Positions 17,989 through 27,059 of a stretch of 64,000 nucleotides of DNA are shown here, in pieces. Source of the DNA: Escherichia phage CJY920; sequence record PQ349265.1; one strand, given 5' to 3'. Every line of letters starts with the position of its first letter. Positions within the stretch are counted from its first letter, which is position 1. The notes under the pieces were generated by a model. That model was not told the DNA's origin. It did not search any database and saw only the letters and a list, made by a program, of their open reading frames with translations. The position numbers and the translations under genes are program-made.

Positions 17989-17989
<1 letters not shown>
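17747..17989 (-). CDS. 67: prohead core protein gp67 (acidic Asp/Glu tract)
   Basis: 80-aa ORF ending in a poly-D/E run; T4 length and synteny. Confidence 0.75.
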
Positions 17990-19614
<1,625 letters not shown>

Positions 19615-19646: not shown

Positions 19647-20138
19647 TTATTCCCAATAATCGAGAGCGAGAGTTACTTCAAAGGTTTGGATTTCATTGTT
19701 TGAATCCCAATCTAATTGAAGTTCACCCACGTTAGTAGGCCACAAGCCTTTAATTTCGACTTCTTTTGTTACAGTTTTAGCGTCACGAGCATATTGGCGA
19801 ACAACAGCGCTCTTTTTATATTCTGCTGGTTTTCCACCAGTAATTTCGTTCCCTTGCCCAGCAGCAATGCTTTGCCAATCAACAAACTTCTGGCGAGCAT
19901 CATGTGCTTCATCGTTCATTACTGTAATAGTCCAGTCATCGAATGTACGATCGCCTGCTACGTTAATTTTACGGTTCATAAATCCGACTGGAATTTTTTC
20001 TACAATACCAGCTGGTAAAGCAGTGGCTTTACATTGAAACGTAAAATTTTGTCCAAGATAAGAAATTTCTACTTGGAATAAGTTAGGTCGAGCAAAATCA
20101 CCAGATTCAAACGCTCGTGTTACATCATCTACAAACAT
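19647..20138 (-). CDS. 19: tail tube protein gp19
   Basis: 163-aa ORF; T4 length and synteny. Confidence 0.9.
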   Translation of the reverse strand: MFVDDVTRAFESGDFARPNLFQVEISYLGQNFTFQCKATALPAGIVEKIPVGFMNRKINVAGDRTFDDWTITVMNDEAHDARQKFVDWQSIAAGQGNEITGGKPAEYKKSAVVRQYARDAKTVTKEVEIKGLWPTNVGELQLDWDSNNEIQTFEVTLALDYWE

Positions 20139-20152
20139 ATTAGCCTCTGTAG

Positions 20153-20219
20153 TATTTATATCCCTATGTTTAACCTAGGGCATATAGAATTAAAGAATTA
20201 AGGATATAGTGTATTTATA
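20153..20219 (-). promoter_or_regulatory. two late promoters (TATAAATA) upstream of gene 19
   Basis: tatttata at 20153-20160 and 20212-20219 on plus strand, in the spacer between gene 19 and the HNH ORF. Confidence 0.45.
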
Positions 20220-20245
20220 TGGCCTGCCGAAACAGGCCTTTAGAA

Positions 20246-20737
20246 TCATTCTAGTAAATCCCAAAGATCTACGCTATTTCTTTTTGACTTTTCTCGGTTA
20301 GATTCCCAAGTGATTATTTCTAAATTTTTTACGCTTGCTATAATTTCCGGCGGAATTAAATTATCAAATCCATATTTGATAGATACTTTATGATCGAGTT
20401 GGTAAGCACCTTCTACACCGCACACTCCTATTTTATCAGCATTCGGCCATTTTGACCAAATTTTTCTTATTTTAGCTGACTTAGTTATAGAATGAACTCT
20501 ACTAGCATATAATGCAAACTCTTTTCTTTTACCAGTCCATCGAGGATGTTTATCGCCTCTTTGCCATGGTCTGCTTATTCCGGATTGAACTTCCGAATTT
20601 TTAATAGCAACTTGTTTAATACTACATTTTCTACATGCATGTGTGGGTGTTCTATTTAAAAGCTGAATGCTTCTACTAAATTTAATACCGCACAAATCAC
20701 ATTTAGCGTCAACTATTTTATTACTATTCTTTGGCAT
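20246..20737 (-). CDS. HNH homing-endonuclease-like protein inserted between genes 18 and 19
   Basis: 163-aa ORF; N-terminal CxxC...CxxC zinc ribbon; HNH core QLDHKVSIKYGFDN...NLEIITWESNREK; T4 has no gene at this junction as far as I recall. Confidence 0.8.
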   Translation of the reverse strand: MPKNSNKIVDAKCDLCGIKFSRSIQLLNRTPTHACRKCSIKQVAIKNSEVQSGISRPWQRGDKHPRWTGKRKEFALYASRVHSITKSAKIRKIWSKWPNADKIGVCGVEGAYQLDHKVSIKYGFDNLIPPEIIASVKNLEIITWESNREKSKRNSVDLWDLLE

Positions 20738-20867
20738 TAATTCTATTGGAACAGATACTGTATCATGTTATGATACTTTATATCCTAGAATTGTCGACCA
20801 CATTTTTGAATGATTTCTTGGTTTTATTGTAACAAACTTAGAAATAATCACTTGTTTCCTCGAGAAT

Positions 20868-20881
20868 AGGGGCCGAAGCCC
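20868..20881 (-). terminator. GC hairpin downstream of gene 18
   Basis: ggggccgaagcccc just 3-prime of the gene 18 stop on the minus strand. Confidence 0.45.
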
Positions 20882-20890
20882 CACAATCAA

Positions 20891-22870
20891 TTAACCTGCA
20901 AGACCAGTTAACTCATCGAAATCTGCGCCAGTAGCAGTTGCGACGAAATTAAGTTGGATATAATTTATACTACGAGCCGGTTGGATGTAGAATGTTGCAA
21001 CAAACTCATTTCTATCAATTACTGACGGAGTGTTATTTGTTGTATCGCAAACTACACGATATTCATAAATTCCACCGAGAGCTTTAATTCCCTGTAAGTA
21101 TTGGGCAGTTTCTGTGCGGAATGATGAACGAGTAAACGCGTTGTTTAATTCGAATAAACGATATTTTGAACTACGTCCGATATTCGTTTTCAACATATTA
21201 AACAGACGACGAACGTTAATACGATCAAATGGAGAAGGAACAGAAGTAGCTGTTTTATCACCATACAATACGTAACCATCACCACCTGTACCGGTTACCG
21301 GGTTGATAGCTTCTTGATATAAACGGTCGCGCTGAGCCTGGCGAGTTTCAATAGCAAGTTTAATAACGTTAAGAATCTGGCCGCGATTATAACCAGCTGG
21401 AGACATCCAAGTCTGAGAAACGTTATCAGTTCTTGCGCATAAACCTGCAATATCAGCTGCTAATGGAACCCAGCGATTTACATCATTATATTTGTCATAC
21501 TGATATTTGTAGTTACCATCAATTGCTGCATAGGTTGAACTGATATTAAAGTTATTATCAGTGTATGAACCTGCTGCAGTTCTCCAATTGACTAAGTTAT
21601 CAACAGCACGAGTTACAGGAATTCCAACTACAGTTTCACGCGGTGGTGAGCACAATACTAAGCAATCTTGGCGAGCATCCCCAATTGAAACGACGTGTTT
21701 TTGGACAGTAGATGCTGTTTCTAAAGATTCACCGGCACAAGAACCCGCAATAAACAACTGAACGTCAACAGATTCACGGTCAGCAAAGAAGTCCCAGGCT
21801 TCCATCAAATCTCCTGCTGTTACTTCAGCATTTGATGATAATCCACCAGACAGAGTTAAAATTCCAGAGAAGCCTTCTGGCCAGTTTTGCGCAGTTGCAA
21901 AAATATATTCTGAACCACCTTTTGCGAAAAAGTCATCAATATAGATGTTGCTATCGTAAATATCTTTTTCACCACGCTTTGTTGAAAGAACAACGCTTTG
22001 AACAATAGCATCATTACGACGAACTATAATAGCGTATTGTGAATCAGTTTGTGGTCCATATCCAAACACTGCTTTGGCAGTAGATGCGCGTGTTCCGCCA
22101 CCTGGATAAATTGGGAGTAATGCAGAAGCTCCTTTTGCGTAGTCAGCTTTAGATACAATTTCGATTTCAATTTTATCGCCTAACTCGCCTGGATAAAGAG
22201 CTACTACTCCTGGAATTCCATATTTTTCGAGATTTGCTTGAAATTCAACCGCTGTCACAGCAGCTTCAGCATTTTCAATTTCAGCTAATAAAATACCGGA
22301 ATCAGTAATAATTTTTCCAAGAGTTATTACTGCAGCTAAACCAGAGGAAGACGAAGAAATTTCCGCGGTCCAGTTAGAACCTAATGCTGGATATTCACCG
22401 ACTTCTTTCGCTTTAGCGATAATTTTTGCGGTAGGAATATTAATTTTCTTAATTTTTCCATCAGCATCTACTTCGGTAATTTTACCCTCTGTTTCAACAT
22501 TTTCTGAAACATACTTAACCGTGATTTTATCTCCAACCGCGTAGTTACTACCTGGGGCTGAAATAGTGTATTCAATATTACCAGCAATCGGAGATGAGTT
22601 TTTAGCGGTATCTCTATCGACAGCACGCACAACTCGCAAATCATTTCCATATTGTAAGAAATTCATTGCAGACATAAAATAATCAGCAGTTTCAGCTGTA
22701 GGTTGACCAAAAGTATTAACTAAATCTACTTCATTTGTAACCTGTTTAATCTGAAAAGCAGGACCCCACTGGAATTTACCGGCCAAAGCTGCTGTACCAG
22801 TAGAGTTATTAACAACGGTGCTTTGAACCGTAGTTTCTTTGAGCTCAATGCCCGGAGATAATAAAGTCAT
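20891..22870 (-). CDS. 18: tail sheath protein gp18
   Basis: 659-aa ORF; T4 length and synteny. Confidence 0.95.
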   Translation of the reverse strand: MTLLSPGIELKETTVQSTVVNNSTGTAALAGKFQWGPAFQIKQVTNEVDLVNTFGQPTAETADYFMSAMNFLQYGNDLRVVRAVDRDTAKNSSPIAGNIEYTISAPGSNYAVGDKITVKYVSENVETEGKITEVDADGKIKKINIPTAKIIAKAKEVGEYPALGSNWTAEISSSSSGLAAVITLGKIITDSGILLAEIENAEAAVTAVEFQANLEKYGIPGVVALYPGELGDKIEIEIVSKADYAKGASALLPIYPGGGTRASTAKAVFGYGPQTDSQYAIIVRRNDAIVQSVVLSTKRGEKDIYDSNIYIDDFFAKGGSEYIFATAQNWPEGFSGILTLSGGLSSNAEVTAGDLMEAWDFFADRESVDVQLFIAGSCAGESLETASTVQKHVVSIGDARQDCLVLCSPPRETVVGIPVTRAVDNLVNWRTAAGSYTDNNFNISSTYAAIDGNYKYQYDKYNDVNRWVPLAADIAGLCARTDNVSQTWMSPAGYNRGQILNVIKLAIETRQAQRDRLYQEAINPVTGTGGDGYVLYGDKTATSVPSPFDRINVRRLFNMLKTNIGRSSKYRLFELNNAFTRSSFRTETAQYLQGIKALGGIYEYRVVCDTTNNTPSVIDRNEFVATFYIQPARSINYIQLNFVATATGADFDELTGLAG

Positions 22871-22898: not shown

Positions 22899-27059
<4,161 letters not shown>

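Follow-up and report, generated by a model that had tools for sequence, protein, structure and literature searches.

In our study, the junction between the tail sheath gene (18) and the tail tube gene (19) was analysed in a 64,000-nucleotide stretch of DNA from Escherichia phage CJY920 (PQ349265.1), hereafter called the window. The region was found to be the late structural module of a T6-like Tequatrovirus, encoded on the minus strand in the order 17, 18, open reading frame (ORF), 19 and 20. The best nucleotide match of the 1.8-kb region was phage DCP2 (98.8%), and T6 matched at 98.3%. A 163-amino-acid (aa) ORF was present between genes 18 and 19, where the original prediction, made from the DNA letters alone, had placed an HNH endonuclease gene. 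The same prediction took genes 18 and 19 to be adjacent in T4, and the T4 junction, when read, contained a spacer of 116 nt and no gene between them. The ORF belongs to a 644-bp insert which, judged by alignment, is the gene known in T6 as ORF19.1, at the site that it occupies there. We consider it rather probable that ORF19.1 is a free-standing homing-endonuclease gene of a divergent HNH-like family (PHROG 5104), located at the sheath/tube junction of T4-superfamily phages, and that the copy in the window is degenerate.

The boundaries of the insert were obtained from the alignment of the window with T6, RB3 and ADUt, which are occupied, and with RB14, which is empty, together with the T4 junction and five metagenomic Tequatrovirus-like contigs. 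The insert was found directly after the stop codon of gene 18, where it replaces 8 bp (TACGGTGC); T4 and RB14 lack the insert and carry these 8 bp in its place, in agreement with the original prediction that the ORF is an insertion relative to T4. The empty site contained the gene 18 end ...GGTTAA, followed by TACGGTGC and then by ATTCTAAAGGCCTGTTTCGGCAGGCCATATAAATAC. All seven empty Tequatrovirus-like junctions read GGTTAA-TACGGTGC-ATTCTAAAGGCCTG, and the T4 18/19 junction sequence was GGTTAA-TACGGTGC-ATTCTAAAGG. In the occupied site, ...GGTTAA was followed by the 644 bp and then by ATTCTAAAGGCCTG. The insert contained a GC hairpin, a GAGG Shine-Dalgarno sequence, a GTG start codon and a 201-codon ORF.

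The GC hairpin after gene 18, which had been described at 20868-20881, was present one base away from that position and, by the aligned boundaries, is part of the insert. It was kept in T6, RB3 and ADUt. The minimum free energy (MFE) of a 41-nt context was -12.4 kcal/mol (z -1.65), and the hairpin at 20869-20882 was not scored as an intrinsic terminator in the terminator scan. The hairpin probably attenuates or stabilises the gene 18 transcript. In an extended form it may partly pair with the Shine-Dalgarno region, a weak predicted pairing at this z value, which would be reminiscent of other T4-type endonuclease genes, for which a restraint on translation has been described. The leader sequence and the promoter scan contained no promoter-like sequence within the Tequatrovirus insert. 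A σ70-like promoter inside the ORF (20770-20797) was attributed to chance, as the region has 7 such sites and 6.2 were expected. The insert is not the self-contained cassette that had been proposed, because it has no promoter of its own; the copy in the window also contains a premature stop codon.

The upstream region of gene 19 contained two TATAAATA motifs between the insert and the gene, at the positions given in the original prediction, and a hairpin (GGCCUG-UUUCGG-CAGGCC) between the ORF and the distal motif, which had been missed. The window as a whole contained 25 copies of TATAAATA against an expected 10.5 ± 3.3, and a count of 25 was reached in 0 of 100 shuffles. The hairpin and both motifs were unchanged at the empty sites of T4, RB14 and the five metagenomic contigs. 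One of these contigs (L019) was found to contain two base differences, both located between the TATAAATA motifs, in a part of the spacer other than the motifs and the hairpin. The native 108 bp (20139-20246) showed 98-100% identity in about 380 records without the ORF. In a distant empty-site genome (L020), whose gp19 is 88% identical, a compensated hairpin GGGCTA...TAGCCC was followed by TATAAATA, and the proximal TATAAATA was absent. On the evidence of these alignments, the hairpin predates the insert and both late promoters of gene 19 are ancestral and not rebuilt, because insert-free genomes have the same hairpin and both motifs. By the same comparison, the insertion landed upstream of existing signals, and the expression of gene 19 was never disturbed by it. 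The claim that two late promoters were rebuilt on the far side of the insert was thus refuted by the comparison of the 18/19 junction with insert-free T4-like genomes.

The 163-aa ORF was found to be the 3' remainder of a 201-codon gene that begins at GTG 20851, which had escaped the original prediction. PHROG 5104 matched the 163-aa ORF with an E-value of 3.9e-70, at profile positions 46-209 of 228 only. The relatives of ORF19.1 are typically about 190-220 aa long, and the family consensus N-terminus MIISKxV aligns with the GTG at 20851. The full-length frame is interrupted by an ochre codon at codon 28. Over 752 bp the window and DCP2 differed at a single position, 20768, which lies in this codon. 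None of the 62 database copies was identical to the window across 20735-20805, and the TAA was unique among the 62 copies. Compared with T6 over 201 codons, the window contained 9 synonymous changes, 1 missense change (I56T) and 1 nonsense change. The TAA leaves a 27-codon stub and a 163-aa ORF without a ribosome-binding site, and an intact expressible ORF is not present; no Shine-Dalgarno sequence was found before ATG 20737, and the methionine at that position is not conserved in the family. The window copy is most likely inactive, because of the TAA at codon 28 and because the downstream ORF lacks a ribosome-binding site, and it would represent the degenerating phase of the homing-endonuclease life cycle. 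The lesion looks recent, because 9 synonymous changes were found against 1 missense change in the comparison with T6, and the gene looks to have been under purifying selection until then. The coordinates of the features are given in Table 1.

Table 1. Features of the sheath/tube junction and of the neighbouring genes in the window.
Feature	Position	Strand	Evidence or remark
644-bp insert	20247-20890	minus	Alignment with T6, RB3, ADUt (occupied) and RB14 (empty)
Insert-borne hairpin GGGGC-UUCG-GCCCC (GGGGCTTCGGCCCC)	20869-20882	minus	Between gene 18 stop and ORF19.1 ribosome-binding site
Shine-Dalgarno GAGG of full-length ORF19.1	20858-20861	minus	
GTG start of full-length ORF19.1	20849-20851	minus	
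In-frame ochre TAA, codon 28	20768-20770	minus	TAT (Tyr) in T6 and DCP2
163-aa ORF	20246-20737	minus	Residues 39-201 of ORF19.1
CxxC...CxxC zinc ribbon, putative DNA-binding module	20624-20701	minus	C13, C16, C35, C38 of the 163-aa ORF
HNH-like ββα core, YQLDH...NLEIITWESNREK	20288-20404	minus	Key residues D115/H116, N138, N147, K150
Native hairpin GGCCUG-UUUCGG-CAGGCC of the 18/19 spacer	20221-20238	minus	MFE -14.1 kcal/mol, z -3.06
Distal TATAAATA (late-promoter core)	20212-20219	minus	Same in empty sites, also retained in L020
Proximal TATAAATA	20153-20160	minus	5 nt upstream of gene 19 Shine-Dalgarno; same in T4, RB14 and other Tequatrovirus-like empty sites
Gene 19 Shine-Dalgarno GAGG	20144-20147	minus	
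Gene 19 (tail tube)	19647-20138	minus	ORF; Pfam Phage_T4_gp19, E 3.3e-15
Gene 20 (portal)	17989-19575	minus	ORF/Pfam
Gene 18 TAA stop	20891-20893	minus	Insertion starts at next base; alignment with T6, RB3, RB14
Gene 18 (tail sheath)	20891-22870	minus	ORF; Pfam Gp18_dom_I, E 1.5e-39; Phage_sheath_1, E 7.9e-36
TATAAATA of gene 18 late promoter	22899-22906	minus	Motif scan
~106-aa C-terminal intein piece ending ...VESHN (HN, then C), then gp17 from Cys257 onward	22902-24287	minus	
206-aa protein, zinc finger and TnsA-like/endonuclease-I-like nuclease domain	24275-24895	minus	Pfam PF08722, E 8e-10
gp17 residues 1-256, then a putative N-intein part of ~41 aa with Cys as its first residue	24861-25754	minus	

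The predicted layout of ORF19.1 contained an N-terminal β/α and zinc-ribbon domain, followed by a C-terminal ββα nuclease domain with a D-H...N...N pattern. The cysteines of the zinc ribbon were invariant or nearly so in a 30-sequence alignment. The Pfam treble-clef zinc finger DUF4379 was matched by 11 of the 30 members (best E 8e-4), the zinc ribbons of mS66 were matched in the PDB profile search (E 1e-4), and a PHROG 'HNH endonuclease' match (E 0.0034) was restricted to the zinc-ribbon part. The motif CG..YQxDH-x22-NL-x4-W-x2-N-x2-K was invariant in 30 close relatives. The D, H, N and N residues were invariant in a 40-sequence alignment of the C-domain and at least 90% conserved in 145 representatives (50% identity clusters), with an N-to-N spacing of 9 residues in the core. 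The zinc ribbon and the DH...N...WESNREK core named in the original prediction were present.

The AlphaFold (AF2) models had a predicted local distance difference test (pLDDT) score of 84 for a full-length relative and 85.8 for the C-domain of the window. The C-domain model contained a strand at 53-57 (YQLDH), a strand at 80-84 (LEIIT) and a helix at 85-91 (WESNREK); in the models, DH is predicted to end a β-strand, NL to open the second strand and the last N to lie in the following helix. Foldseek with the isolated domain returned three matches only, Gme HNH, ScoMcrA and PtuB, each an HNH-type nuclease and each with a non-significant E-value, of which the top match was 4h9d with a template modelling (TM) score of 0.45. 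With the full-length multi-domain model (predicted TM score 0.5), Foldseek against the PDB gave no match at E<0.1. The best structural matches to the predicted model were Gme HNH (PDB 4h9d) and the HNH protein of phage GVE2 (5h0o), with 70-74 aligned residues around the ββα core. PDB profile searches were run with the 30-sequence, the 145-sequence and the C-domain-only alignments; the best nuclease match of the C-domain was the Cas9 HNH domain, at a sub-threshold E of 0.35, where YQLDHI was aligned with the catalytic YEVDHI. In one relative (P0160), this C-domain was fused to the DNA-binding module NUMOD3, which is known from homing endonucleases. We regard it as likely that the C-terminal domain, as modelled, is an HNH-like nuclease. 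A match to leucine-rich repeats (PDB 4u08, E 1.3e-5) was rejected as spurious, as the stretch 'PxEIGxIxNLQxxxWxxN' mimics one repeat unit and its score was summed over 13 repeats; this part of the nuclease domain is a trap for automated annotation. A weak Pfam match to Prim-Pol (E 0.014) was below threshold and was ignored.

The distribution of ORF19.1 was patchy. Among about 500 Tequatrovirus-like records, about 69 contained the T6-type ORF, about 49 the RB3-type ORF and about 380 were empty, so that about 24% were occupied; among the IMG/VR loci, 14 of 15 were empty. Together with the clean boundaries, this gives the ORF the look of the mobile element that the original prediction had described, and the ORF is not universal among the related phages. 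Homologues of ORF19.1 were found in 241 phage records by tblastn. The profile search gave 6,331 cluster representatives at E<=1e-3 and 1,469 at E<=1e-10; the family is large, because 6,331 representatives were reached at the first of these thresholds. In every lineage opened, the gene directly followed the sheath gene and, phiM7 apart, was itself directly followed by the tube gene, and a homologue was seen at no genomic locus other than the sheath junction. These lineages were Tequatrovirus, Dhakavirus (UP19, QL01, Bp7 and EcoM005), Karamvirus (myPSH1140), Klebsiella phage Roth77, Acinetobacter T4-like phages, Shewanella phage Thanatos-2, Sinorhizobium phage phiM7 and four metagenomic contigs. 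The homologue of Enterobacter phage myPSH1140 (NC_055739; L005 2500-3093) is unannotated in RefSeq; it gave a gap-free 200-aa tblastn match, 61.5% identical to ORF19.1, sits in a 780-bp sheath/tube gap and looks intact.

The homologues were 33-67% identical in amino acids to the window ORF and occurred in three insertion configurations. Apart from the Tequatrovirus configuration, the ORF of QL01, UP19 and Roth77 was found after the sheath stop codon and was preceded by a σ70-like promoter, a stem-loop, a Shine-Dalgarno sequence and GTG. In Bp7 (L010), EcoM005 (L008) and an IMG/VR contig (L025), a 33-36%-identical relative was found at the gene 19-proximal end of the spacer, where the insert contained its own hairpin and TATAAATA, and its stop codon was separated from gene 19 by 3-40 nt. 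Here, the nearest late promoter to gene 19 does come from the insert, as had been imagined for the window. Two further contigs, L024 and L026, which are Dhakavirus-related by gp18/gp19 identity, contained empty sites.

Within Dhakavirus, two insertion points and three divergent alleles were found with near-identical flanks; the alleles were 66.7%, 49% and 35% identical to the window ORF, and gp19 was 73.6% identical in all of them. Similarly, the T6-type and RB3-type ORFs were 56% identical, and their flanks were 98-99% identical. In the comparison of these two types, the leader and the 3' half showed 76-100% identity and the middle part only 40-50%. Short (T6, UP19) and long (RB3, ADUt; QL01) alleles of the N-terminal/zinc-ribbon part, the latter with an insertion of about 9 aa ('PLGAxKHGF'), coexist in both Tequatrovirus and Dhakavirus, and the short and long alleles within one genus have near-identical leaders and 3' (nuclease) ends. 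The pattern suggests module swapping by recombination inside ORF19.1. A site-specific mobile gene that entered one target region repeatedly would fit these comparisons better than vertical descent with loss, because the divergence of the ORF does not track that of the flanks and the insertions differ between lineages.

The alternatives to a homing-endonuclease gene were weighed against these observations. According to the model of the original prediction, a self-contained cassette brought two late promoters or forced their reconstruction, by which the late expression of gene 19 was kept. Both TATAAATA motifs do stand between the ORF and gene 19, and the Bp7/EcoM005 type of Dhakavirus does bring its own TATAAATA next to gene 19. 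However, the boundary of the insertion in the window lies upstream of both motifs, the 108 bp that hold them together with the hairpin are found nearly unchanged in insert-free phages, T4 included, and the distant empty-site genome, too, retains the hairpin and the distal motif, so we give this model hardly any credence. It is also improbable, to a lesser degree, that the C-terminal domain is not a nuclease and that the protein is a zinc-ribbon regulator, binding DNA or RNA, in which the D-H...N...N pattern is coincidental. No curated HNH profile was significant, and, apart from the spurious repeat match, only zinc-ribbon modules were matched below E 0.001, which speaks for such a regulator; the invariant motif and the structural matches make this reading unlikely.

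Two further explanations accept the variable gene and deny it homing, and we hold both to be unlikely, the second slightly more so. The ORF may move by homologous recombination at conserved regulatory linkers, in the manner of PeSLs, the mobile regulatory cassettes of T4-type phages (Arbiol, Comeau, Krisch 2010; PMC2839356), its own nuclease not being the driver and having another role. The leaders of QL01/UP19 and Roth77 contained the full promoter and stem-loop architecture of the PeSL, the window leader retains a GGGG...CCCC stem-loop, a Shine-Dalgarno sequence and a GTG start codon directly upstream of the variable ORF, and the short and long N-domain alleles with their genus-specific leaders and 3' ends point to recombination inside and around the ORF. 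However, the Tequatrovirus leader differs from a PeSL in having no σ70-type promoter, and no second PeSL was found downstream with which it could recombine. PeSLs also populate hyperplastic early regions and not a conserved late structural module, and the shuffling would not account for the restriction of a single protein family to a single junction in genera that are far apart. ORF19.1 may instead be an old, vertically inherited packaging or tail accessory gene that was lost many times, possibly a nuclease that helps the terminase, as HNH proteins of the HK97 gp74 type do. The gene adjoins the 17-18-19-20 block in every lineage examined, the synonymous changes that dominate the comparison of the window with T6 indicate purifying selection, and Gme HNH and GVE2 HNH, the best structural matches, are small stand-alone HNH nicking enzymes, of a group that we take to be linked to terminase helpers. 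Against this, about three quarters of the Tequatrovirus genomes, T4 included, are without ORF19.1, three very different alleles and two insertion points were found in one genus with nearly identical flanks, and the T4-type terminase already has a nuclease of its own.

Several points also weigh against the reading of ORF19.1 as a homing-endonuclease gene. The nuclease domain was recognised by no sequence-profile method: Pfam gave no HNH match for the window ORF at E<=1, HNH_4 was matched by just 2 of the 30 relatives at a sub-threshold E of 0.021, the NCBIfam and PADLOC searches returned no match, and nothing was significant for the C-domain in the PDB profile searches. No co-conversion tract or immunity polymorphism was shown, in a small sample in which the flanks of occupied and empty Tequatrovirus sites were almost identical, and the searchable literature contained no cleavage or homing experiment on ORF19.1. 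The absolute constancy of position also fits an old resident gene that was repeatedly lost. As for the degenerate state of this copy, an error in sequencing could account for the TAA, and the 163-aa remainder might still be made by re-initiation.

If ORF19.1 is a homing-endonuclease gene, it would be transcribed late by read-through from the late promoter of gene 18 across the insert hairpin. In a mixed infection, the nuclease would cut the empty 18/19 junction, or a conserved site nearby, in a related phage, and recombinational repair would copy the gene into the break. The occupied site would be immune, its target being split by the insertion. A wider reading, which we put forward tentatively and hold with less confidence than the homing-endonuclease gene itself, is that ORF19.1 represents a large HNH-like homing-endonuclease family invisible to curated profiles, which uses one sheath/tube target across the T4 superfamily and beyond and diversifies by swaps of its N-terminal zinc-ribbon specificity module; the window copy would then have been caught just after its inactivation.

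The closest known gene is T6 ORF19.1, which has been in GenBank under that name for decades without an assigned function. It has the same site, hairpin, Shine-Dalgarno sequence and GTG as the window copy, and differs in containing TAT at codon 28, where the window has TAA, and in one missense change (I56T). In kind, ORF19.1 is like the free-standing HNH homing endonucleases, such as Hef of phage U5 and MobA-E of T4. These genes are likewise small free-standing ORFs between conserved T-even genes, patchy among close relatives and with an HNH-type catalytic motif, and in this class, too, a single site can hold one endonuclease gene in one phage and a different one in another. Self-mobilisation was demonstrated for MobE (PMC2790892). 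Unlike these genes, ORF19.1 has no detectable similarity to curated HNH families, contains a treble-clef-like zinc-ribbon N-domain and lies in the late structural module.

The gene was found in the databases under the labels 'putative head morphogenesis protein', 'holin', 'type II restriction endonuclease', 'HNH endonuclease', 'homing endonuclease' and 'hypothetical protein'; the labels of head morphogenesis protein, holin and type II restriction endonuclease were supported by no analysis in our study. The T6 gene ORF19.1, and free-standing HNH-type homing-endonuclease genes of T-even phages as a kind, are well known. The ancestral origin of the promoters, the ochre-truncated copy, the domain unseen by curated profiles and the strict fidelity to the sheath/tube junction with swapped N-terminal modules are new. 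The reading of the locus is corrected in that gene 19 has kept its ancestral late signals, upstream of which the insert is located, and a usable annotation is provided for a gene that is variously labelled in well over a hundred phage genomes. If the nuclease activity and the target are confirmed, a site-specific enzyme family with naturally swapped DNA-binding modules would be added, and the biased inheritance of the 17-20 region in T-even crosses would be explained. The copy with the ochre codon would then illustrate, in nature, how a homing-endonuclease gene decays. Overall, the findings are of modest practical use.

Some other features were observed in the same module. The large terminase gene 17 of the window (22902-25754, minus strand) was split into three ORFs and fractured after Glu256 by an atypical split intein, with the ORF of the TnsA-like nuclease located between the two gene 17 halves. 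The gp17 of T4 and T6 is uninterrupted, and a fractured gene 17 was found in 17 of 494 matching phage records, including PD112, HY03, SG1 and phiR1-RT. The gene 17 arrangement is similar to an unusual terminase described by Dassa et al. 2009 (PMC2677866), also fractured and carrying an atypically split intein. The fractured terminase recurs in Shewanella phage Thanatos-2 (MT457553; L033 1-1980), a distant T4-like phage that also contains an ORF19.1 homologue; its large terminase is in two pieces, the first of which contains Terminase_6N and Tn7_TnsA-like_N.

In the Dhakavirus phages QL01 (L007 3744-4325), EcoM005 (L008 3615-4196) and Bp7 (L010 3637-4218), an extra 193-aa ORF was found between genes 19 and 20, a candidate for a further mobile endonuclease gene of this module. 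The QL01 copy is annotated as 'HNH endonuclease', and Pfam gave just a weak match to the GIY-YIG family SegE (E 0.0046), for which reason it was dropped as a bona fide HNH reference. The portal gene 20 of phage Bp7 (HQ829472; L010 4276-5498) is annotated as two adjacent coding sequences, gp20' of 108 aa followed by gp20, which could reflect a frameshift, a sequencing error or a real split.

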